From the sequence record OK428535.1: a stretch of 64,000 nt of DNA; one strand, given 5' to 3'. Source of the DNA: Escherichia phage vB_EcoM_Lh1B. Of this stretch, positions 7,389 to 51,898 are shown piece by piece; position 1 is the first letter of the stretch, and the number at the start of each line of letters is the position of its first letter. The translations under genes were made by a program, and so were the position numbers. The notes beneath the pieces are model-generated. The model saw only the letters and a list, made by a program, of their open reading frames with translations, was not told the origin of the DNA and searched no databases.

Positions 7389-7420
7389 GGAACCCTTCGG
7401 GGTTCCATTTNTTCTTTTTT
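7389..7420 (+). terminator. intrinsic terminator
   Basis: GGAACCC-TTCG-GGGTTCC hairpin followed by T-rich run. Confidence 0.75.
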
Positions 7421-7473
7421 ACGCATGACCTTTTGGATATGAACNNCTAATNCTTTCTCATTANAAGGCAAAC

Positions 7474-9984
7474 ATGCACAAGGTCGAACGTATCATTTTN
7501 AAAGNNTTTACCGGCATGGGGTTACATGAAANNNAAANNTTTGATTTCACCCTTAANTCAACCGTTACCANCATCCTCGGTGGCAACGGCTGCGGTAAAA
7601 CAAGCCTCCTGTCTGTTTTTCTCCCCTTAGCTCCAGCAAAATCAGAATTCCGTGAAGGTGGTTCCTACACTAACTACGCGTTAGTTGGGGACGACCGTCT
7701 TAAGTTTGAAGTCCTGCGTCGTGGCTCTTCTCTGTCTTGTAGTATTTTCAATATCACTAAAGGTGTCTCCATCGTAGACTCGGTAAACGCCAAAGTTTAC
7801 AACTCCATGGTGGAGCAATTAACCGGAATCACCAAAGAAATCAAAGAGTTAATTAATGGTGAGACCTTATTAACTGACGCCACTACCGAAGTTCGTCGTA
7901 AATGGTTTACGTTAATGTCAGAATCTGATCTGACGTACGTTGTTGGTTGCTATCGACGTTTGCGTAAACTCGCTTCCAGTTTAAGTGGGGCCATTGAGCA
8001 CACCGGCCGTAAAATCGGTGAGGCAAAAATGCGCGTGGTGGACGATGAAGAAGATCGTGCACGTTTAGAAGTTCGTTTGAAAGAACTCGATGCTGAGCTT
8101 CAGGAATTAAACCGCACAATTGAAGCGAGACCCGGTTTAGATAACGCCGTTTCGGTTGATAGTATCCGGAAACGCATTGCTTCGTTGCAACCGGCTGTAA
8201 AACTCATTATGGAACGTTATGGCGTTCTGCCTTCTGACGAACTGATTAACGAGTTTCAAAGTCGTGTGGTTGCCTGGCGTGAGCAAGCTGCCTCTGCTGA
8301 AACTGAATGCAACATGTACAATAAAGAGTTGTCACAGCTACTGGATGAGGAGTCGCGTCAAGCGTATCTGATGCGCAACCATACCGGTCTAAAACAAACA
8401 ATCGACAGCTTAAAACAGGAACTGGCAACGTTCCAACAGAACTGGATGTTCCCGGCTCTGTTTGAAGGTACCCGCATTGATGTGGATAGCATTCAGAACG
8501 CGTTAAACGATGCCTGTAACTGGAATTTACCGTTGTCCATGCATCTGGACCAGTTAAAGACAACAGATCGCCTGGGAGCGTTAGAGAAGCGTTTACAGGG
8601 TATGGATTTAACCTCTGCGGGTCTATCTGAAAAGCTGCAACGTTGTGAGAATGTGCTACACGGTTTATACCACGACCGTCAACACTTCTTAGAAACTGCA
8701 GAAGTTGATTGTCCACAGTGTAACCACCGTTTCCGTCCTGGGATTCGTAAGTCGTTACCTGAAATTGAAAAGGCCATCAACGATAATGAAGGTTGGAAGA
8801 AGCAGCTGAAAGACGAAATGGATAGTCTTTTGCGTGACCGCAAAGAGATTGAAGAGGACGTCCGTAGCTTACGTACGATTCGCGAAATCGTCATGTCGTA
8901 TTCCAACCATCCTGTTGTCGGTTTGTTTTTCCGTAAACTGCAGGAGCTGGATATCTTCACCACGGCGCGGGATCGTTACGGTGCCATTGCACGTGCCTTT
9001 ACTGAAGAGCTAGATTCGGCCATGATGTATCTGCGTCAATCGGCGAAGCTTGCAACAGCGGAACGGGAATGGCAAGAGGCTGTTGCCGCAGTAGGTAACG
9101 TTGATGGTGCGCTGAGCCAGAAAATTGAACATATCCGTTCACAACTGGACGGGGCTAACCGTCGACTGATAGAATACCGCAGACAAGCCAATGAGCTGGA
9201 ACGCGAAACCACCCAACTGCAACAAACCAAAGAAGCAATCGAACGTTTCCAAAAAGGCTACGAACATCTGGTATCGGAAATGAACATCTCCGTTAACAAC
9301 GTCGTGGTTCGTGAGTTGTTAAACCGACGCGAAGCGAAGCTCGATGCGTATACTTCAGCTCGTGAACGGTTTCGTCAAATGGAAGGGGCTATTGCACGTT
9401 TAGCGGAATTGGAAAAAGAGCAAGCTGAGTTGCTCAAAGAACACCATCNNGNCNGATTGATTATCAATGCCGTCTCACCCGAAAAAGGATTATTGCGTCG
9501 TTACTTTTATGCTGCGATTACCCGCATCATGGATTTAATGAATCGGTATATCGAAATGGTGTGGGCATATCCGATGCAGGTTATTCCATGCGATCTAACC
9601 GACGGGGATTTGGATTATACTTTCCCGGTGCGATTAAAAGACCATGAAGAACTGGTGCCGGATGTGAAGAAAGGTTCGAAGGCACAGCGTATTATCTTTA
9701 ACATGATGTTTCGTTTAACGGCGTATAAAGCGCTTGGTTTACAAAACTATCCTTTGTTNTTNGATNAANCCNCNNAAGGCATGGATGAANAACANAAAAA
9801 NCGCCTGGTCAACTTCTTTAAATCGTTGGNGTTGTTGGGGGAGTTTTCTNAANTGCTGGTCGTTTCGCATGAAGCGGAAGTTCATTCTAAACTTAACGAA
9901 GCCACCTACTGTGTCGTGGAGCCAGAAGGTGTAACGCTTCCACCGGTTTATAACGAAGGGGTAATAATCAAATATGCATCATAA
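7474..9984 (+). CDS. SbcC/Rad50-like SMC-family ATPase
   Basis: Walker A GGNGCGKTS near N-terminus; long predicted coiled-coil middle with CPQC (CxxC hook-like) near residue 410; C-terminal ...LVVSHEAEV after partly n-masked Walker B/signature region. Confidence 0.75.
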   Translation: MHKVERIIXKXFTGMGLHEXXXFDFTLXSTVTXILGGNGCGKTSLLSVFLPLAPAKSEFREGGSYTNYALVGDDRLKFEVLRRGSSLSCSIFNITKGVSIVDSVNAKVYNSMVEQLTGITKEIKELINGETLLTDATTEVRRKWFTLMSESDLTYVVGCYRRLRKLASSLSGAIEHTGRKIGEAKMRVVDDEEDRARLEVRLKELDAELQELNRTIEARPGLDNAVSVDSIRKRIASLQPAVKLIMERYGVLPSDELINEFQSRVVAWREQAASAETECNMYNKELSQLLDEESRQAYLMRNHTGLKQTIDSLKQELATFQQNWMFPALFEGTRIDVDSIQNALNDACNWNLPLSMHLDQLKTTDRLGALEKRLQGMDLTSAGLSEKLQRCENVLHGLYHDRQHFLETAEVDCPQCNHRFRPGIRKSLPEIEKAINDNEGWKKQLKDEMDSLLRDRKEIEEDVRSLRTIREIVMSYSNHPVVGLFFRKLQELDIFTTARDRYGAIARAFTEELDSAMMYLRQSAKLATAEREWQEAVAAVGNVDGALSQKIEHIRSQLDGANRRLIEYRRQANELERETTQLQQTKEAIERFQKGYEHLVSEMNISVNNVVVRELLNRREAKLDAYTSARERFRQMEGAIARLAELEKEQAELLKEHHXXXLIINAVSPEKGLLRRYFYAAITRIMDLMNRYIEMVWAYPMQVIPCDLTDGDLDYTFPVRLKDHEELVPDVKKGSKAQRIIFNMMFRLTAYKALGLQNYPLXXDXXXXGMDEXXKXRLVNFFKSLXLLGEFSXXLVVSHEAEVHSKLNEATYCVVEPEGVTLPPVYNEGVIIKYAS

Positions 9985-11110: not shown

Positions 11111-11599
11111 ATGGCCGAAATTGTCATTCTTTCCTCATCCTCAGATTTAACGGAAGCACAAAATAAACAGCTGTTGGGGCTGCATTATAAATTTCTGAAC
11201 CACCAACGTACCATACTCCATATCGAAAAAGGTGAGATTCCGAACCTCACTCTGGAGAAACTGTTGGCGGGGAACCGTGCTTGTGTTGCTCTGGAAGGGG
11301 GTACCCCTGTTGGTTACTGTTTGTATCGCGTAATCGCTGGGGTTCTGAAGATTCGTACGATGTTCGTGTCTGAAATGGCACGCCGTCGTAAAACGATGAC
11401 GCAGATTTTTGATGCGCTTGATGTGAATGNGCAGTTCACCAGTGCGCATGGGGGAATATACGCTTGCCAGGAAGCTGGTATTGCGTTCTTTACCNCTCGC
11501 GGTTTTGACAAGACCGTCTCTACAGACGGACAATGGCTTGAATTTAAGAAGCAGGTTCTTGCGGAAGCAGATGAACCTTTAAGGACTGCGGTAGCATAG
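11111..11599 (+). CDS. possible GNAT-family acetyltransferase (weak)
   Basis: Start set to ATG 11111 (AGGAA upstream); ...GTPVGYCLYRV...MFVSEMARRRKTMTQIFDAL...ACQEAGIAFFT.RGF resembles GNAT core and C-terminal motif only loosely. Confidence 0.4.
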   Translation: MAEIVILSSSSDLTEAQNKQLLGLHYKFLNHQRTILHIEKGEIPNLTLEKLLAGNRACVALEGGTPVGYCLYRVIAGVLKIRTMFVSEMARRRKTMTQIFDALDVNXQFTSAHGGIYACQEAGIAFFTXRGFDKTVSTDGQWLEFKKQVLAEADEPLRTAVA

Positions 11600-11670
11600 T
11601 CCTGTTTTAGCACTCCTTACGATTATGCCTCACTATGAGTGGGGTATTTTTTACGCGAGGAGTGCTATTT

Positions 11671-11880
11671 ATGTTTCACCGTCCCGGGTTTTCAGCTTTA
11701 AACACCGATGTCTGTTGGGCTGAGTACGAGCGGGTGAAGGAGTTCTTACCCGTAAATCCTAAACACATCAACGTGGGTACTATCGGGCGTGTTGCGTTCG
11801 ATGACACTCCGCTGAGTACGTGTATTAAAGCTGCGCTTGGTACGCTGCCGGCGTCTATAGTGTTTGAGGAATTAAAATGA
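11671..11880 (+). CDS. hypothetical protein (69 aa)
   Basis: ATG 11671 with GCGAGGAG upstream within track ORF 11635-11880. Confidence 0.4.
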   Translation: MFHRPGFSALNTDVCWAEYERVKEFLPVNPKHINVGTIGRVAFDDTPLSTCIKAALGTLPASIVFEELK

Positions 11881-12395
11881 CGGACATTCGTGTTGACATA
11901 TATGGGGAAATTCATACCACGGCCGATCGTAATCGTGTTGAATGGGCTATCATCGATAACCATCGGAAAAAACCATACGATTTTTTACTGTGTGAAGAAC
12001 TGGGGCCGTATGAACATCACACTGCAAAAGCGCAAGATAAGGCATTAAAGGAGAAGATGTACTCTATTGGACCCATGGGGCTGGAGTTGGCTAAGAAACT
12101 CGGCATCCCTGCTATTGGGATCGATGACTGGAGCGACGCAACCTACGCTAAAGATATCAAGGATAAAAAGGGAATGGCTGTAAACTTTAGCCGTTCTTTT
12201 TATATTNGTGAAACTAAAATGGTTGCAAAAATTAAAAAGTATATGGCAAAAGGGCGTTGTGCTGTTATGCTTGGCGACTCACACTTGCGCACCACGAAAA
12301 CTAAAGAGCTTGGTGATGCGTCCCTTATCTGGGAAACGTTTAAGGATAATCCTGAAGTGAAGTTTCACAGGAGCCCTAAACGCGAGATTGATTAA
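11877..12395 (+). CDS. hypothetical protein (172 aa)
   Basis: ORF track; ATGA overlap with upstream stop. Confidence 0.6.
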   Translation: MTDIRVDIYGEIHTTADRNRVEWAIIDNHRKKPYDFLLCEELGPYEHHTAKAQDKALKEKMYSIGPMGLELAKKLGIPAIGIDDWSDATYAKDIKDKKGMAVNFSRSFYIXETKMVAKIKKYMAKGRCAVMLGDSHLRTTKTKELGDASLIWETFKDNPEVKFHRSPKREID

Positions 12396-12413
12396 ATCTA
12401 AAGGAGCATTAAA

Positions 12414-12836
12414 ATGGTTACCGCTATTCGCGAAACAAAATCACTATACGATCATTTATCAGAAGAAGAAACAGCCTTATTCTACGACCTGTTACCTGAA
12501 ACCAAAGCAAATGTTCAGTGGTGGTTACGTTTAGCGCTACGTGATAAAGTTGGGGAAACGCCGGTTAGTATTCTCGCACACACGTTGGACATGACACCCA
12601 TGATTGAAATCGCGATTACCCGCCCTAAATTCTGGCGACCTGGTATGGTGCGTGAGGCGTATCTACTCCAACGCTTAGGTGTTGACCCGGAGAAGTGTTG
12701 GCGTAAGATGGACGACCATCGCTACCGTGAAGAAATTACGAATAGCCTCAACACTATGTTGGCAATGAAACGACTCGGTATCGAANACGAAGGTTTCGAG
12801 TCTGCGGTGCAAGCGTGGGTGAGAAGGAATAGCTAA
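12414..12836 (+). CDS. hypothetical protein (140 aa)
   Basis: AAGGAGCATTAAAATG start context. Confidence 0.6.
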   Translation: MVTAIRETKSLYDHLSEEETALFYDLLPETKANVQWWLRLALRDKVGETPVSILAHTLDMTPMIEIAITRPKFWRPGMVREAYLLQRLGVDPEKCWRKMDDHRYREEITNSLNTMLAMKRLGIEXEGFESAVQAWVRRNS

Positions 12837-13085
12837 ATGCAAAAAACAATCATCGGAATAATGGTTAGTTCTTTCTGTGGTTTCCCTACCCCGCAGACAG
12901 AACCCCAATATTTGGGCGCAGGCAAACCTGATCCGGAAGTCCGTAAGTTGCGCGAAGAAGCAAAAGCCAGAGTTCTTACTGAGCTGGAATCGTTGCTTCA
13001 GTCTCCGGTTATTTCACAATGGGGTATGGCAATAGATGTCACTCGAACTGATCGACGAGGCTATTATCTCCCACGACCTGTTTAA
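12837..13085 (+). CDS. hypothetical protein (82 aa)
   Basis: ORF track; 3' end overlaps macrodomain gene start by about 50 nt, so uncertain. Confidence 0.35.
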   Translation: MQKTIIGIMVSSFCGFPTPQTEPQYLGAGKPDPEVRKLREEAKARVLTELESLLQSPVISQWGMAIDVTRTDRRGYYLPRPV

Positions 13086-13536
13086 CGCGCCTGAGCGCTT
13101 CAAGGTCGTTACAGTTAACTGTGTTGGTGCAATGGGAAGGGGCATTGCCTTGGCGTGCCGAGAACGCTTCCCATCGCTTTATAATGACTATCGCCAGAAA
13201 TGTCGTAAAGAGCAAATCGTTATCGGTGAGGTCTATTGTTATCCTGAGGAAGGGGTAATACTCCTTCCTACTAAAACCCATTTTCGCTATAAATCGCAGA
13301 TTTACTATGTCACGTCCGGCATTGATGCGCTGGCGCGACTAGGGGAAGACTTAGAAGGAGGGATTGCGATACCNCCCCTAGGGATGGCTAACGGTTGGTT
13401 ACGTTACCATGAGCGATTGGAAATCTTTATACACTTACAGAAACGACTACAGCACACGGAGCAGACTTATCGATTCTATTTACCAGACACCCTGCTGAGG
13501 GAAGCAGAGAAAATCATCCCAAAAAGTTTCAAATAG
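13036..13536 (+). CDS. macrodomain protein, TARG1/DarG-like
   Basis: DLFNAPERFKVVTVNCVGAMGRGIALACRERFP...IGEVYCYPEEGVILLPTK...GGIAI.PLGMANGWL lines up by eye with the TARG1-type block DLFxCP...C....RMGAGIA...FKKKF...GEV...TK...P.IGCG. Confidence 0.65.
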   Translation: MSLELIDEAIISHDLFNAPERFKVVTVNCVGAMGRGIALACRERFPSLYNDYRQKCRKEQIVIGEVYCYPEEGVILLPTKTHFRYKSQIYYVTSGIDALARLGEDLEGGIAIXPLGMANGWLRYHERLEIFIHLQKRLQHTEQTYRFYLPDTLLREAEKIIPKSFK

Positions 13537-13559
13537 ATATTATTATCAGGGCACATTAC
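13533..13559 (+). promoter_or_regulatory. class A upstream motif, divergent copy
   Basis: ATAGATATTATTATCAGGGCACATTAC resembles ATAGATATTATCTACAGGGAC at 22623. Confidence 0.35.
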
Positions 13560-13635
13560 AAAGGAGCACAATGCCGTCCGCGCCGTCTTCCCGGATTGGG
13601 AACGGAAAAGTATAAATCCGTTTGGAGATACATCC

Positions 13636-14358
13636 ATGTTTCNCACCATTTTATTTCTTCTGGTAGCAGTGACCACATTCAACAGCAACGCTTCTTACCA
13701 GACCACCAGTAACAAACACCAAAAAGAATTCGTCCTTATCCAGGACCAGTTCAATGAGATTAAACCTCTCATCGTCACCGCATCTCGAAAACAAGGCGTA
13801 CATGCCGGGATGCTCGCGACCACCATTTATCGTGAATCCCGTTTTAATAAAAACGTGGGTAAGAATAAATCGAGCAGTGCTAGTAGTGTTGTCCAAATGA
13901 CGACAGGCACTAAACGCTCCATGATACGTCTGTATGGGAAACAACTTAACATCCCAAAGAATGCGGACCTTAATAAACCGAAGTATGCTGTACAGCTTGC
14001 TGCCGTTTACATGAAACACATCGAGGATCATCTGACAAAACAACTCAAACGCAAGCCGAGCACAGCCGAAATCGCTTTAGGCTATCGCTTCGGTGAGGGT
14101 GCCGCTGTTGCGATGATTAAAAAGAAATCACCGGTCGGGAAACGCTGGATGGCNNGCNACNGAAAAGACGCAGCATTCTACGGTGCGAAAATGACACCAC
14201 CGAAAGNTGAAANACNNCNGNTTNNNTTTGNGNAGGNAGNCCANGNCCAACGNGTCGCCGAACTTCAGAAAATCTGGGATACGCTGTACACCAAAATATC
14301 ACCTGCGGCCGGTACATTACTGGCAAATAACACTATCATGAAAGGAGCATTGCTATGA
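13636..14358 (+). CDS. lytic transglycosylase-like protein with N-terminal hydrophobic signal/anchor
   Basis: Hydrophobic N-terminus MF.TILFLLVAVTTF; YRESRFN...SSASSVVQMT...AAVYM resembles the SLT E-S motif block; GGAGA upstream; C-terminal third n-masked. Confidence 0.55.
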   Translation: MFXTILFLLVAVTTFNSNASYQTTSNKHQKEFVLIQDQFNEIKPLIVTASRKQGVHAGMLATTIYRESRFNKNVGKNKSSSASSVVQMTTGTKRSMIRLYGKQLNIPKNADLNKPKYAVQLAAVYMKHIEDHLTKQLKRKPSTAEIALGYRFGEGAAVAMIKKKSPVGKRWMXXXXKDAAFYGAKMTPPKXEXXXXXFXXXXXXQXVAELQKIWDTLYTKISPAAGTLLANNTIMKGALL

Positions 14359-18555: not shown

Positions 18556-19065
18556 ATGATAGCATCAGTTTTCAAACTGCTTCCATTCTTACAAATGCTG
18601 TGGGAAGCATTTAAACCGGGCGAGGGGGAGAAAGTAACACGAGCCGGGAAAATAGTGACACTAGTGATAGTGGCACTGATCGCGTTCTCTGCATTTGTCT
18701 CATACGCCTACATTGTTCAATACCACACACTGGTTAGCGTTCAATCGCGTACTCAGTATCTGGAGATATCCTATAAGGAGCTAAAAGAGAAGTCCGATCA
18801 TGGCGAAGTGGAGAACAATAAGTTGTACGATCGTCTCTTCACGTGCCTGGGTTCTCGACCGCCATATGATGGTACCAAATCTCCAACAGGAACAGGCACT
18901 GAGGCCGCGGTTCCGCCTGTANAAANCAANCCNGTAANNCCNCCGGCNCCGTTNAATCCNTCTANCCCNCCNNCCAAGAAATACCNGGCCNCTTCTCNCC
19001 CGGTAGGGTCGCAGGAGGCAAATGATTTCCGACAGGAGATTATCAGTACGCTTAATAATCCATGA
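18556..19065 (+). CDS. membrane protein with N-terminal TM helix and Pro-rich C-terminal region
   Basis: Start set to ATG 18556 (GAGGTGA upstream); TM IVTLVIVALIAFSAFVSYAYIV; charged helical segment; n-masked Pro-rich region. Confidence 0.55.
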   Translation: MIASVFKLLPFLQMLWEAFKPGEGEKVTRAGKIVTLVIVALIAFSAFVSYAYIVQYHTLVSVQSRTQYLEISYKELKEKSDHGEVENNKLYDRLFTCLGSRPPYDGTKSPTGTGTEAAVPPVXXXXVXXPXPXNXSXXXXKKYXAXSXPVGSQEANDFRQEIISTLNNP

Positions 19066-19557: not shown

Positions 19558-19598
19558 CTCCCTCTTACCTTCGGGTAAGAGGGGATTTCCTTTTTTAN
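19558..19598 (+). terminator. intrinsic terminator
   Basis: CCTCTTACC-TTCG-GGTAAGAGG hairpin followed by GGATTTCCTTTTTT. Confidence 0.75.
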
Positions 19599-19642: not shown

Positions 19643-20362
19643 ATGACATATCCTAAAATTCTGCCTGTTTTAACGCCCACCGTTGTTGTTGGGACGGACT
19701 TAGAGACCCTGGCTTTACGTCCAGATGCCTACATCTTAACGTTGGCAAACGTGGCATTCGATGTTCCGACAATGAAAATGATCGGTTCATGTTACCACAA
19801 AATCGACCCCAATGATGCAAAAGCAAAAGAAATCTTCTACATCGATCCACAAACGGTCGGTTATTGGGAAGGTAAAGGCGACCCCGAATACGCACCGAGC
19901 GAGAAAGCACGTATTGAAGCGTTTTCTGGGACCACTCCACTGCCAGAAGCACTGTGGGCGGCCAAAAAATGGTTGGATGATCTGGGCAACGTGAAAATGG
20001 TTATCACCATGCGCGGTCCCGATTTCGATGCTCCAATTCTGATGAACGCATTCGCGCAGTGCGATATCCCGCCGGGCAAGTACCGCAAGTTTTCTATATT
20101 GGACTCTGACCGGACTGCAGAACGTATTGCATATGCGTTTGGCCTGGAACCGAACTGGCACGCAGAAGCGCACCATTGGACCCGTGGCAAAGAAGCGTAC
20201 GAGCATAACGCTAGCTTCGATGCTGCGAAGGAAGCGTATTCTACGGCACGCATCTATCATTTGGCCCTGGTCGCGCGTACGTACGGCTTCGAACGCATGT
20301 TAGAAGCCCACCGCGAAATGTGCACAGGTGAATACATTCCACCGCAGTTGCGAGGAGAATAA
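19643..20362 (+). CDS. DnaQ-like DEDDh 3'-5' exonuclease
   Basis: VVVGTDLETLAL (Exo I D-x-E) and YEHNASFDAAKEAY (Exo III H-x4-D) motifs. Confidence 0.65.
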   Translation: MTYPKILPVLTPTVVVGTDLETLALRPDAYILTLANVAFDVPTMKMIGSCYHKIDPNDAKAKEIFYIDPQTVGYWEGKGDPEYAPSEKARIEAFSGTTPLPEALWAAKKWLDDLGNVKMVITMRGPDFDAPILMNAFAQCDIPPGKYRKFSILDSDRTAERIAYAFGLEPNWHAEAHHWTRGKEAYEHNASFDAAKEAYSTARIYHLALVARTYGFERMLEAHREMCTGEYIPPQLRGE

Positions 20363-21876
20363 TGAAAGACGTCGACGTAGCGGTTATTTATACCGATGGT
20401 AGTCATACTGAGTCCCCGAAAGGTTCGGGGGCTGGTATTCATGGTTATTTATTCAACAACGGAGATTTGGAAGACAGTCAGGCTTATAGCCATCCGGGTG
20501 TTTCANAANGGATTACCACTGTTGGATANAAAAAAGNGCCGCAGGNTGNGAAGTGTCCGGNGTTGCCGGACACCGTTNAATTTNTNGACGCCGTTNTTCC
20601 CGTTCCNAAANAGTTNTNCNCAGATGTGGGNGNGTTAATCNCCTTCATCACGTTNTTTGAGAACGCGCCCTTCCGCGCGAAGAACTATATCATCTACGTG
20701 GATGCCAGTTACGTTGTAAACACTTTTAACGAGTGGATAGACGGCTGGCATAAACGTGGTTGGGTTCGTGCTGACGGTACTCCGCTGGCGAACAAAGAAC
20801 TTATTGTTCGTATCTGGGAAATCAAACAGCAGATGAAAAAAGAAGGACGGGGTGTTAAGGTTATCAAAATCAAAGGACACTCCGGCCACTACGGTAACGA
20901 CCGGGCGGACGAATTGGCTAGAAAAGGTTCAGCCATCACAGCGACCAACGACGGCGTTCCATATCAGCCGTACTGGTCGAAGGATGAGTTGCCTGCATCC
21001 GCGGAACCCGAGCCCATCGCCGCTGGGATGAACCTTGCGGCATATCCGCCTATTTGTACGGTTAAATATTGCTATCCGTTGGTGAACGAGGACCATCCTA
21101 CTGTAAAAGTGAAAGATGAAACTTTCTATTACATGTTTGGTGGCAACCATGCAAAGAACAAGGACGACTTGGTGTTTATTGGGAAAATGATTCCTGATGC
21201 ACACTTTTCCGTAATGTTCACTAAACAACCGTGGGATAACATCTACACGATTGTAAATACCCACGCCGCCCTGGCATGGAAAGATACACCGAAGATGCGG
21301 CAGTATGATCCAATCGGTGTTGTTAACAATGAGTTCGTTAAACGTAAGAAGTTCGTTGATGTGGCAGGTGATGGATTACCGGCAGACAAGATGCATTTCA
21401 GTGGAGAAGATTCCAATGTCTGGTTCTTTGAAGACCTGGCCATCTCCAGAATGCTTCGCCCGCCCTTATTGTCGTACCGTGCGCTGGATATTCGTGATGA
21501 ACTCGCTACAACGTTGCGAGATGTTCTGCATCAGGAAAAGGGTTACGTCTTAAACGACATTACCGACTTGCTATTCGACGACAAAGGTAAACCTGTCAAG
21601 GAATACTACCGTAGCGTCGATAAGTCAATAACGTTAAAGATTGACTTTCCGATGGGTAAACGACCTGTCTCGGTTATTTTGACTCGCGGTATCGATATTC
21701 CATCACGTACGGAAATCAACCGTATTAAAGAACCCGAAGGCCGTTATTACATCGCGGTGTGTCGTCCTGAAAAATACTACATCCGTTACTTCTTAATCTA
21801 TATCGGTAAAGAGTATCATGGGTTGTGGTGTGCGTATTACGCAAACCGTCGCATACTGCGAGAAGAAGAGGTGTAA
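20362..21876 (+). CDS. RNase HI domain protein with about 300-aa C-terminal extension
   Basis: N-terminal VAVIYTDGS...; WHKRGWVRADGTPLANKEL...VKVIKIKGHSGHYGNDRADELARKG aligns by eye with E. coli RNase HI WKKRGWKTADKKPVKNVDL...VKGHAGHPENERCDELAR; overlapping stop-start with exonuclease gene. Confidence 0.8.
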   Translation: MKDVDVAVIYTDGSHTESPKGSGAGIHGYLFNNGDLEDSQAYSHPGVSXXITTVGXKKXPQXXKCPXLPDTVXFXDAVXPVXKXXXXDVXXLIXFITXFENAPFRAKNYIIYVDASYVVNTFNEWIDGWHKRGWVRADGTPLANKELIVRIWEIKQQMKKEGRGVKVIKIKGHSGHYGNDRADELARKGSAITATNDGVPYQPYWSKDELPASAEPEPIAAGMNLAAYPPICTVKYCYPLVNEDHPTVKVKDETFYYMFGGNHAKNKDDLVFIGKMIPDAHFSVMFTKQPWDNIYTIVNTHAALAWKDTPKMRQYDPIGVVNNEFVKRKKFVDVAGDGLPADKMHFSGEDSNVWFFEDLAISRMLRPPLLSYRALDIRDELATTLRDVLHQEKGYVLNDITDLLFDDKGKPVKEYYRSVDKSITLKIDFPMGKRPVSVILTRGIDIPSRTEINRIKEPEGRYYIAVCRPEKYYIRYFLIYIGKEYHGLWCAYYANRRILREEEV

Positions 21877-21877
21877 C

Positions 21878-22618
21878 ATGTTGCGAGTCGTGAGTGAATC
21901 GCTCACGCTCCACACACAAAGTCTGATTAACTGTGTGGAGCAATACGGATGGATGTCGTGGATGGCAACGAACCGTGAGTTTGGTGCTGCGCCCATGGAA
22001 GATTACGACGTGTTGTACAAGTGGGGATTTGAAGCGGCTTGTGATGTTGTGGCAGAGCTGGTTACCGAAACAATTGCGCGTTACAACGCAAGATGTGATG
22101 AACCGATGCCTAAACAAGTCCCGCCGCAAATACCTCCGCTACCGACAATCGATCGTGAGCATTGTCGAATCTGGACAATGGAAGAGTTGTACGACGAACA
22201 CGTTAGAATGCTGAAACCGAACGAGCTAATAACCGGTGCGTTGAACTGGTTCTTACATCGTTTCTGGACAGAGTTGGTCGATGTGGCGGGTGACGAAGAT
22301 AATTGTTCTCAGGTTATTTGGTACGATCGAGCGATGTTTCATCGCAGTCTTAAAGATCGTAGTCTCTGCAACCTGTATATTGTTGACCCGTGTGAAGACA
22401 TTGTAAAGGTTGCAGAAGGTAACTCTTATTCCGACTTGGTGATGCCCGTGGTAGAAAAACCGATGGGTATTTTCCTGCAGGGNGACGNTTGGGTTTTAAC
22501 GGATGATATCTCGGGCTACCTGCTGGACCCGGATGACATTCACTCGGACGAACCTGATACCATCGAGTATTTTCACTTTACAGAACAGGCAGCACGCTTC
22601 TTGCATCTCTTAAAGTAA
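21878..22618 (+). CDS. hypothetical protein (246 aa)
   Basis: ATG 21878 with AGAGGTG upstream, immediately after RNase H gene stop. Confidence 0.65.
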   Translation: MLRVVSESLTLHTQSLINCVEQYGWMSWMATNREFGAAPMEDYDVLYKWGFEAACDVVAELVTETIARYNARCDEPMPKQVPPQIPPLPTIDREHCRIWTMEELYDEHVRMLKPNELITGALNWFLHRFWTELVDVAGDEDNCSQVIWYDRAMFHRSLKDRSLCNLYIVDPCEDIVKVAEGNSYSDLVMPVVEKPMGIFLQXDXWVLTDDISGYLLDPDDIHSDEPDTIEYFHFTEQAARFLHLLK

Positions 22619-22620
22619 TC

Positions 22621-22646
22621 TGAGATAGATATTATCTACAGGGACG
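22621..22646 (+). promoter_or_regulatory. class A upstream motif (phage promoter-like)
   Basis: TGAGATAGATATTATCTACAGGGACG with internal palindrome TAGATATTATCTA. Confidence 0.45.
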
Positions 22647-22671
22647 TAACCTTAAGGAGAATTTATTCACG

Positions 22672-23406
22672 ATGCTTAAAGTCGAAGTGCCAGTGCTTTT
22701 AAACCTCACGCCCCAGTTCTTTGAAGCGTTGTTCGAAAAGCATTGGCCCGCGTTCGCGAAGAACGAACTAAAGGATAACCCACAGTGGTATCCACTGCGC
22801 GATGAATTCAAGTACACAGCCATCAACGTCTGTATAGAAGTCTTCACTGCGTGGTTACAAGAGATGTACGACTGCATCAACACCGAACGGTTGTTCACGC
22901 TAGAACATGTAGAGATTAATGTTGTTGACGTCTACGAAGGTTACACCTACGAAGAAGGCATTACTGCCACGGGGTTAAGCCAACAAGACGTTGAAGAACA
23001 AATCTTTGCGTGGATCGAGTGGTTCACGGAAAAGTTGATGCTGGCTGATTTTGTCACGCAGGTGGAAGATGTATTCATCCCAATGTACGAGCGGTTAGCT
23101 GAGATACGTCGTAACCATCGTCTGCTCGGTTACTGGTATGACACTTATACCACCTCCTCAACATTGTGGTCTTCCGCTACTGCCGCATTTGGCATAACTG
23201 AAGGCGATTACGATGTCATTCATTCCGGCCCTTGGCAGTATGGTTTCGGCACCCTGTGGCACGAGCTGACCGATGCCATGTGCCTGGACTTTTATCTGTG
23301 TGGAGGTAAGTTTTACACGGATAACTGCGTGAGCCAAATTCCGAATGGTGCGATGGTGGTGATGTGTCGCATCCGTAAAGAAGTCGCTGAGAAACTAAAC
23401 TACTGA
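22672..23406 (+). CDS. hypothetical protein (244 aa)
   Basis: ORF track; preceded by conserved class A motif and AAGGAGA. Confidence 0.7.
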   Translation: MLKVEVPVLLNLTPQFFEALFEKHWPAFAKNELKDNPQWYPLRDEFKYTAINVCIEVFTAWLQEMYDCINTERLFTLEHVEINVVDVYEGYTYEEGITATGLSQQDVEEQIFAWIEWFTEKLMLADFVTQVEDVFIPMYERLAEIRRNHRLLGYWYDTYTTSSTLWSSATAAFGITEGDYDVIHSGPWQYGFGTLWHELTDAMCLDFYLCGGKFYTDNCVSQIPNGAMVVMCRIRKEVAEKLNY

Positions 23407-23419
23407 AGGAGTATTTAAA

Positions 23420-23791
23420 ATGACGCAAGACGAATTTGAAACGATGGTAAAACAGTATTACAAAGAAGGGACTATTCTGTACATAGTCGCACCCGAGAGC
23501 GAAAACTGGTTGACGTTATCGTCGCGGGTAACCACCCTACGCGGCCCAGTTTCTCAAGAAATAAGACAGATGGCTCGTATAGTTCGAGATACCGCCATCC
23601 AGGGCGGTAAAGTCGTCAGCTTCTCCCACCTCTCTCCGATCGGCCACTCTAACTTAGAAACCGAAGTTGATGTCGTTGCTACTGTTGGTTTTGATTTAGA
23701 TGGCTCTCCAGGCTCGAACCTTGTCGTGATTAAGAAATGGCGTGGATACGATGCAATCCCATCGCCAGGGGTGTGGCCGGCAACCAACTAG
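23420..23791 (+). CDS. hypothetical protein (123 aa)
   Basis: GAAGGAG upstream. Confidence 0.6.
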   Translation: MTQDEFETMVKQYYKEGTILYIVAPESENWLTLSSRVTTLRGPVSQEIRQMARIVRDTAIQGGKVVSFSHLSPIGHSNLETEVDVVATVGFDLDGSPGSNLVVIKKWRGYDAIPSPGVWPATN

Positions 23792-23801
23792 AGGGGTCGC
23801 T

Positions 23802-24209
23802 ATGTTAAAGGTGTATAGCGAGTCATTGATGGACTTGCAAGAGTATCTAAAGCATGTGGAAATTAACGGCAACCGTGGAATGATATACTCCATGGTTGTC
23901 GAGATTTTAATTAAAATCGTGCTTGTTTCATTCCACGTAGCAGAAAATGGCACTGCTGTACCAGGAGATGTTTATAAAGGCGTTATTAAGCATCTTAGCG
24001 AGCGCTACAGTTGTTTACGTGAACCGGATATCTTTAATGAGGTGCAGCGTGTTGTGTTGCTTATCCTCGACAACCGTGAAGACTTGGCGTACAAGCTTGC
24101 GCATGAATTGGCAGACACGTCACAGCACGGTGGACAACTGAAATATAACGTTGTGGATCTCGTAGCGTGCAGATACTGGTATACGCAGCCCGAGGTAAGT
24201 AACTTTTAA
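23802..24209 (+). CDS. hypothetical protein (135 aa)
   Basis: ATG 23802 with GAGGGG upstream within track ORF. Confidence 0.6.
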   Translation: MLKVYSESLMDLQEYLKHVEINGNRGMIYSMVVEILIKIVLVSFHVAENGTAVPGDVYKGVIKHLSERYSCLREPDIFNEVQRVVLLILDNREDLAYKLAHELADTSQHGGQLKYNVVDLVACRYWYTQPEVSNF

Positions 24210-24219
24210 GGAGCATTAG

Positions 24220-24759
24220 ATGCAAATCGTAATTGACTTCGCTCTGTCGGAGTCGAGACGTCAGCTAGATGAAATTCTGTTAGGATTAAAACGTGACGTG
24301 GAATTTGAACTTCACGATGCGTTGGCCGTCCACGAAAATCGTTTGTCTGACGAAATAGGTTCGGGTGTAGATGTGGCTATCTGTGACACTGGGGATATGG
24401 TAAATCAGCTTATTGAACGTATGTTCACGCGGCTGCGTAACATTCTGAACTATCCCCATCGTTTTGAACTGGTAGAAGGGACGGACCAAATCACCGACTT
24501 ATTGAGTGAAGCCTTTGATAAGGTTGGTGAATCTCTGGCGGGGTTACATCAAGAGAACCTGGGCGAGACATATGTTGCTGTGGTCATTAACGGGCAAACG
24601 TCGAACGTTACGGATACGGTAACATGGTCCGATATCGTTGACCAGCCAATCATTGACAAAATCACCAAGCTGTATCNTGAGGCGGAGATGAAGGTGCTGG
24701 CTATCTGTCGTCGCGAACTGCTCTATCTCGGCGAGAAATATGGGAAACCTGTTGAATGA
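24220..24759 (+). CDS. hypothetical protein (179 aa)
   Basis: TAAGGAGCATTAGATG start context. Confidence 0.65.
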   Translation: MQIVIDFALSESRRQLDEILLGLKRDVEFELHDALAVHENRLSDEIGSGVDVAICDTGDMVNQLIERMFTRLRNILNYPHRFELVEGTDQITDLLSEAFDKVGESLAGLHQENLGETYVAVVINGQTSNVTDTVTWSDIVDQPIIDKITKLYXEAEMKVLAICRRELLYLGEKYGKPVE

Positions 24760-25298
24760 AAATATTCATTGATTTACTCGATGACGAATTTCGTGAAATA
24801 TTTCCAGCGGCGTTGTTCGAGTTTAAGCGTAAGTGTGAAGACTATCTGATACCGAAGAATATCGATCGTCAACACCTCGCTGGACTTATCTCTGCGGCGT
24901 ACGTCAATATCGCGGTAAATGAAGTTCATCAACTCGCGCAACGTATTGCGTGTTTCGAATACAACGACGAAGACATTGAAGACGGCTTCCTGCAGTCTAA
25001 GATGGGTCGCTTCTCACTCGAACTCAAGACCGATGAGGTTATTGATAAGGTCGGTAAAGCCTTTGATGAAATGAAGGACATCGAAATGATGATTAAGATG
25101 TCTGGACCGGAAGCAGGCCCATTGAAAGAAGCGTGGGAACATCTCAACCGCGACGAGTATAAAGAGATGTACATGGGTGAGTTCACCACCATGCTACGTC
25201 ACCTCGAAGCACAGGTCTGGGAGCATATCGTTTCACGTCTGAAAGAAATACTGATTGTGATTGAGCCAATGCAGCCACTCGCTATTAGTAAATTCTAG
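24756..25298 (+). CDS. hypothetical protein (180 aa)
   Basis: ATGA overlap with upstream stop; followed by terminator. Confidence 0.65.
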   Translation: MKIFIDLLDDEFREIFPAALFEFKRKCEDYLIPKNIDRQHLAGLISAAYVNIAVNEVHQLAQRIACFEYNDEDIEDGFLQSKMGRFSLELKTDEVIDKVGKAFDEMKDIEMMIKMSGPEAGPLKEAWEHLNRDEYKEMYMGEFTTMLRHLEAQVWEHIVSRLKEILIVIEPMQPLAISKF

Positions 25299-25303
25299 TT
25301 AAA

Positions 25304-25338
25304 CGGACACTCTTCGGGGTGTCCGTAGTTTTATTTTA
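25304..25338 (+). terminator. intrinsic terminator
   Basis: CGGACAC-TCTTCGG-GGTGTCCG hairpin followed by TAGTTTTATTTT. Confidence 0.75.
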
Positions 25339-38985: not shown

Positions 38986-39753
38986 ATGATGAAGCTCTTT
39001 GCGTTCTCCGATGAATTCTACACAGTGGAATTCGACGACTACGAATACGGGTTATTAGGGGCCGTCGACATGGAAGACGCTAAACGGCAGCTTCCCACTA
39101 GCGAAATAGAAATCATTGAGATTGGGGAAACTAATCTTAGTGGTATTTTGATGCTGGGGCGGCGACCNCGNCCTGNGGAACCNGNGNNGGAAAAANAGNA
39201 AANGNNANNGNTTTTTTTGGTTTTTGAGCCGAAAGACCCCGCAGCGATAGCGAAGGTAGTCGATACGTTACGGCCACAGATTGGCGTCGCGATTGAAAAT
39301 TATCGNTGGGCTCGTTTCTCAGGCGACACGCCGATATTTTCGAATAAGCACTGGTTGTTATGTATCAACAACGACACGATAATGGTACCGTTAACAGGGG
39401 AGAAGAATTTTGAAGATAACTTCGTCCCTGGCGAAGAGTCTGTTATCTTCGAGTATACCCATGTCATCGGAAAGCCGAGCTTCTACCAAGTTCTGATTGA
39501 TGTCTTGACTCACGTCGGTCGAACCATCGAATACCACTACTGGGCACGCCAGGCGCGTTCTAAATGGTTCTCGTTGACGTACGTCGAAGGTTGGGAACGT
39601 GTTGTTGAAAAGATTGACGGGCGCTATGAGCAGATTTGGTTCCTGAACCCGGCTTTCCGTGAAGAATTACCCGCATGGGTAAAAGAAGAGGCGAGCAAGC
39701 TGACGGTTGGCTTTACTAAGCAGGGCGCGCCGTATATGGTTAACTACAAATAA
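38986..39753 (+). CDS. hypothetical protein (255 aa)
   Basis: ORF track; n-masked segment. Confidence 0.65.
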   Translation: MMKLFAFSDEFYTVEFDDYEYGLLGAVDMEDAKRQLPTSEIEIIEIGETNLSGILMLGRRXXPXEXXXEKXXXXXXFLVFEPKDPAAIAKVVDTLRPQIGVAIENYXWARFSGDTPIFSNKHWLLCINNDTIMVPLTGEKNFEDNFVPGEESVIFEYTHVIGKPSFYQVLIDVLTHVGRTIEYHYWARQARSKWFSLTYVEGWERVVEKIDGRYEQIWFLNPAFREELPAWVKEEASKLTVGFTKQGAPYMVNYK

Positions 39754-40507: not shown

Positions 40508-41449
40508 ATGGGCGAACGTTTCATTATCCAGATTCCGTATAACGTTATTGTTGAACCTAATCAGTACCTGGCACAGATTAATGAGCTTCTGGCTGGATTC
40601 TGCCAACGTCAGTTTGTTAAACCGNGGTCCTTTGANAAACTNTACACCCTNTGCGNGAACAGNGAAACCGGTCACACTTACGTCGAAGGTAAAGTCTTCA
40701 NAGGCNACCAGCGTTTGGAAANAAATGATTTCGAAATGCCGTGGACGTTGGAGGGTGTCGAATATCGTGGTACGGTTGATCGCCCGCGTTACGTGCCTTT
40801 GTACACCATCCCACAATGTATTACTAACGTTATGGGTTGGTCTAAAGCGCGTGGTATTCTGGATAACGGCGTCTGGTATAGCCAAGCCACCAAACTCTAC
40901 GAAGAAGACGGTGAAGCAGCAACCGGCATCAGCAAAACCAAAGAACGTCTTATCATGGACGGCCTAGGCGATGCAATGGTGGTACTGGTTAACTTGATGG
41001 AACTCATTAAGTTTGACTCAACCGATATCACCACATACGTCAACGACGCACGTTCAAAGAAACCACACGCCGGGAACAGTCATTACCTGTTCCACAAAAT
41101 GCGTTTCCATCTTACTTGTGCAGTTGATTATATCTGGGATCAGGCAGGCATCGACTCAGCTAAGCAACTCGAATATAAACACTTCGAGAACAGCGACGCG
41201 GTAATGATCGAATGTCACTTCGCGCAGATGGTCGAATACGCCAATGCGCTGGCTAATGCGTACAACATTACCCTGGAACAGTGCTTCTCACTGGCTTGGG
41301 ATGAAATCAAAGACCGTAAGGGTTTCCTGAACGCGGACGGTATCTTCGTTAAAGAAGCAGACATGACCGCTGCTGAAATCGAAGTAAACGGTTCCCTTAC
41401 TGTAAAAGATGAGGCGCTTACCGATGGCGAAGAAACTGTTCACGGTTGA
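40508..41449 (+). CDS. possible MazG-like NTP pyrophosphohydrolase (313 aa)
   Basis: YEEDGEAATGISKTKERLIMDGLGDAMVVLVNL and ITLEQCFSLAWDEIKDRKG resemble the MazG EExxE...GD and C-terminal helix motifs; N-terminal part n-masked. Confidence 0.5.
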   Translation: MGERFIIQIPYNVIVEPNQYLAQINELLAGFCQRQFVKPXSFXKXYTXCXNXETGHTYVEGKVFXGXQRLEXNDFEMPWTLEGVEYRGTVDRPRYVPLYTIPQCITNVMGWSKARGILDNGVWYSQATKLYEEDGEAATGISKTKERLIMDGLGDAMVVLVNLMELIKFDSTDITTYVNDARSKKPHAGNSHYLFHKMRFHLTCAVDYIWDQAGIDSAKQLEYKHFENSDAVMIECHFAQMVEYANALANAYNITLEQCFSLAWDEIKDRKGFLNADGIFVKEADMTAAEIEVNGSLTVKDEALTDGEETVHG

Positions 41450-41846
41450 TTACGATGAATACGTTGATCGTTTACTGGTCAACAATATCGTCTGGGAAGA
41501 CCACGGTCTAATGCCATGGCATCTGAAACTCCTAGCGGAGCGTTCAGAACAATGCGGTGGTTTGGAGTTCGTACTCACCGACACACCAATTCCGGTACCT
41601 CATATTGCGCCGGTAGAAAATCTGTACTTCTTCGATGCTAATGTGAAGTTATTACAGCAGGTACTCTATACGCATGACTGGCGTGGTGGTTGTCAGTTCC
41701 CAGAGAACGTTCTAAAGCTCTCTGAGCGCTTCGGCACCGACATTGCATACTGTCAAACGTTCCCAAAAGACTTGGGACGAAACAGCGTGGTACTGTGGTA
41801 TTACCCTCCGGTAAAAGACATCGTGAAAGTGATTATCGAACGCTAA
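41424..41846 (+). CDS. hypothetical protein (140 aa; start uncertain)
   Basis: ATG 41424 (GAGG upstream) or ATG 41409; overlaps 3' end of previous gene; followed by bidirectional terminator. Confidence 0.55.
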   Translation: MAKKLFTVDYDEYVDRLLVNNIVWEDHGLMPWHLKLLAERSEQCGGLEFVLTDTPIPVPHIAPVENLYFFDANVKLLQQVLYTHDWRGGCQFPENVLKLSERFGTDIAYCQTFPKDLGRNSVVLWYYPPVKDIVKVIIER

Positions 41847-41856
41847 AAAATAAAAG

Positions 41857-41900
41857 CAAACGAGTACCCCGTAAGGGGTACTCGCGTTACTTATTTTTTT
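41857..41900. terminator. bidirectional intrinsic terminator
   Basis: CGAGTACCCC-GTAA-GGGGTACTCG hairpin with A-run upstream and T-run downstream, between convergent gene blocks. Confidence 0.75.
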
Positions 41901-41902
41901 TG

Positions 41903-42454
41903 TTACGCTTGAGTCATGTCGGAGATGTCATAAACCAGACCGTTCAACTCAGTAACGGTGATCAGTTTACTGATATCGACACCATCGCTCGGAACTTCGG
42001 TCAAATAAACTTCAACCGTACCCGTCCACGCCAGTGACTTTCCATTGAAACGCAAATTGTGTTTCGTGGAAGACGTCATTGACTCGTTTGCGTAGATCTC
42101 CGATACGTCAATCATCCAGTTATACTTAGCCTGCAATAACGGGACAAGATCAGCAGCAGTAGATGCGCTACTACCGTCCACAGACAGCACCACGTTTTCA
42201 AACAGGTGGGCTACGTCCAATCGACGGTAAGTAAGACCCATCTTACCAAACGTACCTTTCTCAACGATACCAGAAACATCGAGACTGGTGTTCAGTCTGG
42301 TGTACTGTTCTGGGTCAGGATCGGCTGCGGTGATGTGCGACGGGTTACCGAACGACAATTTATCGATGGTCACGCCCTTACCAGTCAGTCCGGGATTCTG
42401 GGACACGATAAGATCGTAAACCAACTCTTTTGCGGTCTTTCCAAATAAACTCAT
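41903..42454 (-). CDS. hypothetical protein (183 aa), possibly structural
   Basis: Last gene of the minus-strand block before bidirectional terminator. Confidence 0.65.
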   Translation of the reverse strand: MSLFGKTAKELVYDLIVSQNPGLTGKGVTIDKLSFGNPSHITAADPDPEQYTRLNTSLDVSGIVEKGTFGKMGLTYRRLDVAHLFENVVLSVDGSSASTAADLVPLLQAKYNWMIDVSEIYANESMTSSTKHNLRFNGKSLAWTGTVEVYLTEVPSDGVDISKLITVTELNGLVYDISDMTQA

Positions 42455-42476
42455 AATGCGCTACCTCTGTGGTGTA

Positions 42477-51722: not shown

Positions 51723-51898
51723 CGCCGACTTCCTGGCAACATTCAGGGTACTGAGTATCGGGCTTCGTTTTTTCTCGTCTTTGGGACGGGGNGGTTCNCC
51801 NAAANCNTCCCANTCGTCGANTNTATCTAAATCNATATCATCNAAACCNTCTTTNCCTCTTTTTGCCNTAANNTTTNTTCCAATTNAGGAGNTTAAAA

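Follow-up and report, generated by a model that had tools for sequence, protein, structure and literature searches.

Gene content of the locus

The window analysed here, a stretch of 64,000 nucleotides from Escherichia phage vB_EcoM_Lh1B (sequence record OK428535.1), can be assigned by nucleotide similarity to the SPN3US-type (Seoulvirus) lineage of Salmonella jumbo phages, which is related to phiKZ. At 19643-21876 it carries two tightly packed, co-directional open reading frames (ORFs) on the + strand, 19643-20362 (239 amino acids, aa) and 20362-21876 (504 aa), both present where the first-pass annotation, made from the letters alone, had placed them. The upstream gene encodes a 3'-5' exonuclease of the DEDDh type. 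The downstream gene encodes an RNase H joined to a C-terminal domain of about 300 residues and is termed rhc here, as its product very probably belongs to the RNase H-clamp (Rhc) proteins of nucleus-forming jumbo phages. The main features of the locus are as follows.

19643..20362, + strand: gene for the DEDDh 3'-5' exonuclease, 239 aa, ortholog of SPN3US_0206 (Pfam PF16473, PHROGs)
20352..20364, + strand: gene junction, with the GAGGAG Shine-Dalgarno sequence at 20352-20357, the TAA stop codon at 20360-20362 and the rhc ATG at 20362-20364
20362..20946, + strand: N-terminal type-1 RNase H domain of the putative Rhc ortholog, residues 1-195 (Pfam RNase_H)
20947..21066, + strand: flexible interdomain linker, residues ~196-235 (predicted local distance difference test score, pLDDT, below 50 at residues 209-217)
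21067..21876, + strand: C-terminal domain with a predicted sliding-clamp-derived two-lobed fold, residues ~236-504, and stop codon (predicted structure)

In a megablast comparison, the region was 97.6-98.3% identical in nucleotide sequence, over all 2701 bases queried, to the phages SPN3US, SPLA3 and SPFM, with ambiguous bases (n) counted as mismatches in these figures, and 34 near-identical records covered at least 80% of the region. The SPN3US counterparts are SPN3US_0206 (ACQ60_gp060) for the 239-aa gene and SPN3US_0207 for the 504-aa gene; in related phages the two are annotated as 'exonuclease / putative endodeoxyribonuclease' and 'ribonuclease / putative ribonuclease H', respectively.

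Ambiguous bases within rhc

The window contains 315 single n's in 71 clusters, and 20 of these n's lie within rhc as listed here.

20506..20655, no strand: 20 isolated single ambiguous bases (n), in a stretch of the same length as in SPN3US

These 20 bases fall in codons 49-98, and thus away from the domain junction, in a part of the RNase H domain where they overlie an insertion of ~40 aa conserved in the family. Alignment of 19643-21876 to SPN3US was ungapped (2234 vs 2234 bases) with 30 mismatches besides the n's, and therefore the n stretch is neither an insertion nor a frameshift. What the first-pass annotation took for an n-masked insertion interrupting the RNase H core is a scatter of ambiguous bases, with no indel, no frameshift and no masked repeat, and the ungapped alignment led us to discard the frameshift or insertion reading. 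After filling of the n's from SPN3US, the 504-aa protein was identical to SPN3US gp207, and thus all 13 nucleotide differences between the two rhc genes are synonymous.

Elsewhere in the window, n clusters are found for example at 7411-7571, 14154-14253, 18922-18998, 39168-39211, 51792-51939 and 53238-53397. They resemble ambiguous base calls and not marks of repeats or insertions, and several ORFs hence carry X residues. In the records of SPFM1, 7, 8, 9, 10, 12, 14 and 20 the locus is broken into 'hypothetical proteins' and the tblastn matches come in 4-7 pieces (fragmented entries P0035-P0037, P0047, P0070-P0075, P0078; H116, H119, H120); this fragmentation looks like frameshift errors in the assemblies rather than biology.

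The RNase H domain

Two further sets of features lie within the RNase H domain.

20395-20397 (D12), 20632-20634 (E91), 20701-20703 (D114), 20878-20880 (H173) and 20908-20910 (D183), + strand: codons of the RNase H catalytic residues
20455..20577, + strand: structured insertion of ~40 aa, residues ~32-72, between β2 and β3 of the RNase H fold (secondary structure, alignment)

The Pfam RNase_H profile (PF00075) matched the 504-aa protein with 72.7 bits against a cut-off of 25.8 (E=4.7e-20), and a profile built from 40 family sequences matched E. coli RNase HI in the Protein Data Bank (PDB) with E=3.6e-24. The protein displays the motifs TDGS (D12), D114 and KGHSGHYGNDRADELAR (H173, D183) and also the basic-protrusion segment WIDGWHKRGW. 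Residues D12, E91, D114, H173 and D183 align to E. coli D10, E48, D70, H124 and D134 and are invariant or nearly so in the 40 homologs. The profile match, the catalytic carboxylates with the histidine and the RNase H fold were thus all found, as in type-1 RNases H. The codon of the catalytic Glu91 (20632-20634) reads 'gng' in the window and GAG in SPN3US; with this residue resolved through SPN3US, the catalytic set of the RNase HI core, recognised already in the first reading of the sequence, appears intact. The NCBIfam RNase HI equivalog models scored far below their cut-offs (70 vs 160 bits).

The insertion of ~40 aa is well ordered in the AlphaFold2 model (pLDDT 89-95). By alignment, it is common to the homologs from Goslar, phiKZ-type phages and pVa-21, whereas E. 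coli RNase HI lacks it. Compared with E. coli RNase HI and human RNase H1, the phage domain differs by these extra ~40 aa between β2 and β3 and by ~310 added C-terminal residues.

The C-terminal domain

Pfam, NCBIfam and PDB sequence searches gave no match beyond residue 199, in agreement with the earlier remark that about 300 C-terminal residues hold no recognisable motif. Structure prediction of these residues, proposed beforehand as a check, returned a clamp-like fold. The AlphaFold2 model of the 504-aa protein had a mean pLDDT of 87.5 and a predicted template modelling score (pTM) of 0.56, the latter value reflecting uncertain orientation between the domains. The clamp fold was the sole fold class recovered for the C-terminal domain, with the following scores in the fold comparison.

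HUS1: 6.4
Mec3: 6.0
Ddc1: 5.8
African swine fever virus (ASFV) clamp: 5.8
Rad9: 5.7
T4 gp45: 5.2
Bacterial beta clamp: 5.1
Rad1: 5.1
Archaeal and eukaryotic PCNAs: 4.7-4.3
Kaposi's sarcoma-associated herpesvirus (KSHV) PF-8: 4.4

When the full-length model was used for the search, the same clamp proteins ranked below the RNase H matches. Foldseek against predicted viral structures retrieved at the top jumbo-phage 'ribonuclease H' proteins of 450-560 aa (E 1e-42 to 1e-11) and, at lower ranks, stand-alone proteins of ~240 aa and one phage beta clamp (E=6e-4). The C-terminal domain is therefore modelled as a highly diverged, two-lobed fold derived from sliding clamps, while no membership of the Pfam sequence families of the canonical clamps (PCNA, beta clamp, gp45) was detected. 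The two-lobed fold is common to clamps and processivity factors (PCNA, 9-1-1, T4 gp45, beta clamp, UL42, UL44, PF-8) and, like the herpesvirus factors, the C-terminal domain appears from its model to be a clamp-derived polymerase accessory module. Motifs conserved in this domain throughout the family include RPPLLSYRA and GIDIPSR. In addition, six stretches of a 2050-aa metagenomic protein (P0099), which may be a fusion, a repeat protein or an artefact of gene calling, match the clamp-like domain (E=8e-13).

Relationship to the Rhc/phiKZ155 family

Over its full length (residues 1-504) the protein matched phrog_3265 'ribonuclease' with E=6e-178. BLASTP aligned its residues 76-501, and with them all of the C-terminal domain and the larger part of the RNase H domain, with Goslar gp190 (HOV27_gp190; E=9e-37), and its residues 5-494 with the phiKZ155-type protein of phage OMKO1 (E=3e-37); both alignments span the two domains at 25-26% identity. 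The C-terminal domain alone retrieved 213 phage records by tblastn, including Goslar gp190 (E=1e-16, 97% coverage), PHIKZ155 (E=2e-7) and PhiPA3 gp178, and at least 80% of the 504-aa protein was covered in 141 phage records. An exhaustive phmmer search of 1.84 billion representatives with the C-terminal domain yielded only 149 proteins, nearly all of which are 430-585 aa long and match at their C-terminal part, which argues that the RNase H-clamp fusion is the rule for the family. The first-pass annotation had both domains in one ORF; this ORF is continuous and the arrangement recurs in the 141 phage records and the 149 family representatives. The extended RNase H architecture, which had been called unusual, is indeed unusual and a real fusion across the family, but the family has already been described by work of 2025-2026.

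Goslar Rhc, phiKZ gp155 (Nlp2) and PhiPA3 gp176 or gp178 have the same RNase HI domain with the β2-β3 insertion, the same linker and the same clamp-derived domain. Goslar Rhc and phiKZ gp155 also share with the 504-aa protein PHROG 3265 and the position downstream of a divergent virion structural gene, a gene order common to Goslar, OMKO1 and pVa-21, whereas Goslar and phiKZ are without the overlapping 5' DEDDh exonuclease gene of the SPN3US group. Homology over both domains, a clamp-derived fold and a conserved locus in a phiKZ-related (Chimalliviridae-type) jumbo phage were all found. The 504-aa protein is thus very probably orthologous to phiKZ gp155 (Nlp2) and Goslar Rhc and represents them in the SPN3US lineage, where the upstream gene encodes an accessory Rv2179c-like exonuclease.

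Imp1 is the route by which the phiKZ gp155 (Nlp2) protein enters the phage nucleus (10.1101/2024.03.27.586873). Maturation of the nucleus and amplification of the genome both require gp155, which has genuine RNase H activity and is the only one of these proteins for which cleavage of the RNA strand of RNA-DNA hybrids has been demonstrated biochemically; its D102N mutant complements the knock-down, and its C-terminal domain was described as well structured and left without assignment (PMC12571901). The accessible part of an October 2026 preprint gives the Goslar protein the name Rhc (RNase H-clamp) and describes a DNAPN/DNAPC/Rhc polymerase in which Rhc is the third subunit, both of its domains being needed; it further reports that catalysis is required and that Rhc has a separable role in late transcription, probably in R-loop resolution (PMC13648698). 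The clamp-like fold predicted here independently reproduces, at the level of a model, the RNase H-clamp assignment found in that part of the preprint. Accordingly, the C-terminal domain, described as uncharacterised in the first reading, has a predicted clamp-derived fold and matches the published Rhc/phiKZ155 protein (PMC13648698, accessible part; PMC12571901).

Several points weigh against this assignment. Identity to the Goslar and phiKZ proteins is only 25-26%, and so the polymerase-subunit role in the SPN3US lineage is one that we infer; binding to DNAPC, nuclear import and essentiality for replication are reported, as far as the accessible part of the preprint goes, only in Goslar and phiKZ (PMC13648698, PMC12571901, 10.1101/2024.03.27.586873). 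The accessible part of the preprint gives no gene number, and we infer the identity of Goslar gp190 with Rhc from architecture. Moreover, published work conflicts on catalysis, since D102N complements in phiKZ while Goslar is stated in the accessible part to require catalysis, and about 10 of the 135 full-length family representatives in which catalytic residues were counted are without the catalytic set. A literature search for SPN3US gp206 and gp207 found nothing specific and no experiment on either protein.

The upstream exonuclease

The catalytic residues of the 239-aa protein are encoded as follows.

19697-19699 (D19), 19703-19705 (E21), 20027-20029 (D129), 20204-20206 (H188) and 20219-20221 (D193), + strand: exonuclease catalytic codons

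They form a complete DEDDh set, with Exo I D19-L-E21-T, Exo II F128-D129 and Exo III H188-x4-D193, of which Exo I and Exo III had been spotted in the first reading, and all five are invariant or nearly so across 23 homologs. The sole Pfam match was PF16473 (Rv2179c-like), with 35.5 bits against a gathering cut-off of 27 bits (E=1e-8, profile positions 5-170 of 177); 22 of the 23 homologs matched this family and none the DnaQ model. PHROGs returned phrog_255 'exonuclease' (E=4e-53). NCBIfam gave no match for the exonuclease, and PDB sequence searches with the single sequence and with a profile gave nothing significant, RNase T being the best at E=0.59. Thus the earlier label of a DnaQ-like protein has to be replaced: the DEDDh motifs are present, but the DnaQ/RNase T profile is not matched, and the protein belongs to the Rv2179c-like family PF16473 and not to the DnaQ/epsilon family PF00929. 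M. tuberculosis Rv2179c is reportedly the founding member of the Rv2179c-like family. With that family the phage exonuclease has in common a PF16473 score above threshold and the complete DEDDh motif set; it differs by a 40-aa C-terminal extension and by having no significant PDB sequence match. The protein and its SPN3US counterpart share 99.6% identity, with a single difference, N191S.

Homologs of the exonuclease were found in 64 phage records only, from the SPN3US group, Erwinia jumbo phages, Cronobacter CR5 and Vibrio pVa-21, the pVa-21 protein being 33% identical. According to tblastn coordinates, the gene lies directly 5' of the RNase H gene in every record compared. In Goslar and the phiKZ-type phage OMKO1, where the locus is otherwise syntenic, no exonuclease gene was present next to rhc. 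By this distribution it can be regarded as an accessory gene confined to the SPN3US/Erwinia/CR5/pVa-21 subclade. Neither protein of the pair was matched by PADLOC, and a defence or anti-defence role was rejected on this ground.

Gene junction and transcription unit

The exonuclease and rhc genes overlap by 1 nucleotide (nt) in the sequence TAATG, where the exonuclease TAA shares one base with the rhc ATG; read directly from the sequence, this differs from the four-base ATGA overlap claimed earlier. The junction reads GAGGAG-AATA-ATG, the Shine-Dalgarno sequence ending 4 nt before the ATG, so that the overlapping stop and start and the internal Shine-Dalgarno sequence of a translationally coupled pair are both present. 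In Derbicus and other Erwinia phages the gap between the two genes is only a few nucleotides, as implied by tblastn end and start coordinates, and correction of the rhc start in Vibrio phage pVa-21 gives an overlap of 8 nt. The conserved overlapping linkage, kept down to 33% identity, suggests co-expression. Co-expression had already been proposed, and it is made likely by the overlap, the GAGGAG before the ATG and terminators located only upstream (19559-19584) and at 25303.

Regarding the pVa-21 record (KY499642), the gene pVa21_140, 'putative ribonuclease H', has been annotated with a start that should lie 174 nt further upstream (2790-2964). An in-frame ATG at 2790 recovers the MNKLEYKYGVFYTDGG... 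N-terminus, with β1 and the YTDGG motif that includes the catalytic Asp.

19559..19598, + strand: intrinsic-terminator-like hairpin with T-run, 11-bp stem and TTCG loop, closing the preceding gene

This hairpin bounds the transcription unit on its 5' side, and the next terminator-like site on the + strand lies at 25303-25326; the exonuclease and rhc genes lead a run of eight tightly packed + strand genes. The hairpin at 19559-19584 scores on either strand and may act bidirectionally, though the flanking genes are both on the + strand. The AT-rich segment 19599-19640 ahead of the exonuclease gene holds 6 n's, and a phage promoter there is unreadable from the window. A sigma-70 promoter scan was uninformative in this phage, with fewer sites found than in shuffled sequence. 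The six downstream genes of the same unit (21878-25298, equivalents of SPN3US gp208-gp213) belong to PHROGs of unknown function. The first of them begins 1 nt past the rhc stop codon, while a longer alternative start at 21818 would overlap rhc.

Proposed function and alternative explanations

By homology to Goslar and phiKZ, the clamp-like domain would bind DNA and dock the 504-aa protein on the C-terminal subunit of the split family-B polymerase in the phage nucleus. There, at the site of synthesis, RNA would be stripped from RNA-DNA hybrids (primers, R-loops) by the RNase H domain, and the upstream exonuclease would be co-transcribed and tightly coupled with rhc. The suggestion that the extra domain redirects the nuclease gives way to the published view that this domain binds DNA and tethers the protein to the phage's DNA polymerase. 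The split family-B polymerase of SPN3US (NC_027402) is represented by PF20286 at 11544-13823 (+) and phrog_3011 at 41224-43008 (-). These two genes lie far apart; the former carries PF20286, 'divergent family B polymerase', and the latter encodes a 594-aa protein with no Pfam match and intact Exo I-III.

The reading of the fusion as an artefact, in which a stand-alone RNase H gene was joined to a separate downstream gene by a missed frameshift or a faulty assembly where the n's are dense, has the 20 ambiguous bases in 20506-20655 and the fragmented locus in several SPFM phage records on its side, but it is effectively refuted by a continuous ORF with an ungapped SPN3US alignment, by an n cluster inside the RNase H domain and away from the domain boundary, by the 34 near-identical records over at least 80% of the region and the 141 over at least 80% of the protein, and by an architecture kept down to 22-26% identity. 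Granted a genuine fusion, the RNase H domain could be mainly structural or sensing, the clamp-like domain being essential as a scaffold or DNA binder and the nuclease dispensable as in phiKZ155, whose D102N mutant complements the knock-down (PMC12571901). About 10 of the 135 representatives have indeed lost the catalytic residues together with the Pfam RNase_H signature and kept the C-terminal domain, and one of these degenerate proteins carries an added Macro domain. Such members fit the phiKZ result that catalysis can be dispensable and the rest of the protein is not, and natural variants whose RNase H domain is inactive or has been replaced, e.g. the Macro-domain protein P0095, suggest that the clamp-like domain is the part that cannot be dispensed with. 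We nevertheless consider a mainly structural RNase H unlikely in the SPN3US lineage: D-E-D-H-D is kept in 121 of the 135 representatives, the set is invariant or nearly so in the SPN3US clade, and catalysis is reported as required in the accessible part of the Goslar preprint (PMC13648698).

For the exonuclease, the question is whether its position beside an RNase H gene has a functional meaning. The E. coli rnhA-dnaQ pair likewise consists of an RNase HI gene adjoining a DEDDh exonuclease gene, and if the echo of this neighbourhood noted in the first-pass annotation were functional, the phage exonuclease would be an epsilon-like proofreader in trans, a DnaQ analogue recruited through Rhc. The intact DEDDh set and a gene always directly 5' of rhc, overlapping or nearly so, from SPN3US to the 33% identical pVa-21 would agree with this idea. 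It is, however, very improbable, as the Pfam family is PF16473, described as an exoribonuclease domain, and not PF00929, and as the gene is absent from Goslar and phiKZ-type phages that have the same Rhc and polymerase. Furthermore, SPN3US has an N-terminal PolB subunit in which the motifs DVE (Exo I), NHQFD (Exo II) and YNMMD (Exo III) are still in place, and therefore there is no sign of proofreading handed to gp206. With a polymerase that retains its own proofreading motifs, and with Goslar and phiKZ managing without the exonuclease, the trans-proofreader idea was left unsupported and the echo looks coincidental. E. coli rnhA and dnaQ are divergently transcribed; the phage genes are instead co-directional and overlapping, involve another DEDDh family and are limited to one phage subclade. 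It is possible, as a speculation, that the exonuclease has a role related to rhc, e.g. clearing RNase H products or trimming 3' ends. In its most specific form, the exonuclease would be a subclade-specific partner of Rhc in the phage nucleus that degrades oligoribonucleotides released by RNase H or trims 3' ends, with the clamp-like domain separately indispensable. Host enzymes such as oligoribonuclease might be excluded from the nucleus compartment, and a partnership of this kind, to which we give a rather low probability, would accord with production of the two proteins in stoichiometric amounts by way of their conserved overlapping junction.

The representatives without the catalytic set are P0095, P0092, P0094, P0121, P0144, P0145, P0163, P0186, P0206 and P0219, none with a Pfam RNase_H signal. 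In P0095 an N-terminal Macro domain is combined with a degenerate RNase H remnant (YVHTAEG for YTDGG) and a normal C-terminal domain; its gene lies on metagenomic contigs (533-2290, 457-2214) with a jumbo-phage-like gene order.

Significance for nucleus-forming jumbo phages

From the interpretation first attached to this locus, the DEDDh exonuclease, the RNase HI fusion and the likely co-expression are retained, while the DnaQ assignment, the rnhA/dnaQ echo, the uncharacterised domain and the redirection of the nuclease are not. In nucleus-forming jumbo phages, the RNase H-clamp protein serves replication as well as transcription as a core, essential factor, and SPN3US, whose gp207 is placed here in this family, is a genetically tractable model. 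The masked residues of the window protein were resolved, and the RNase H catalytic set of gp207 appears intact. Modestly new are the conservation of an Rv2179c-like exonuclease in tight linkage with rhc in one subclade and the presence of a minority of family members without the RNase H catalytic set. Both of these points bear on the published disagreement over the need for the nuclease activity of Rhc.

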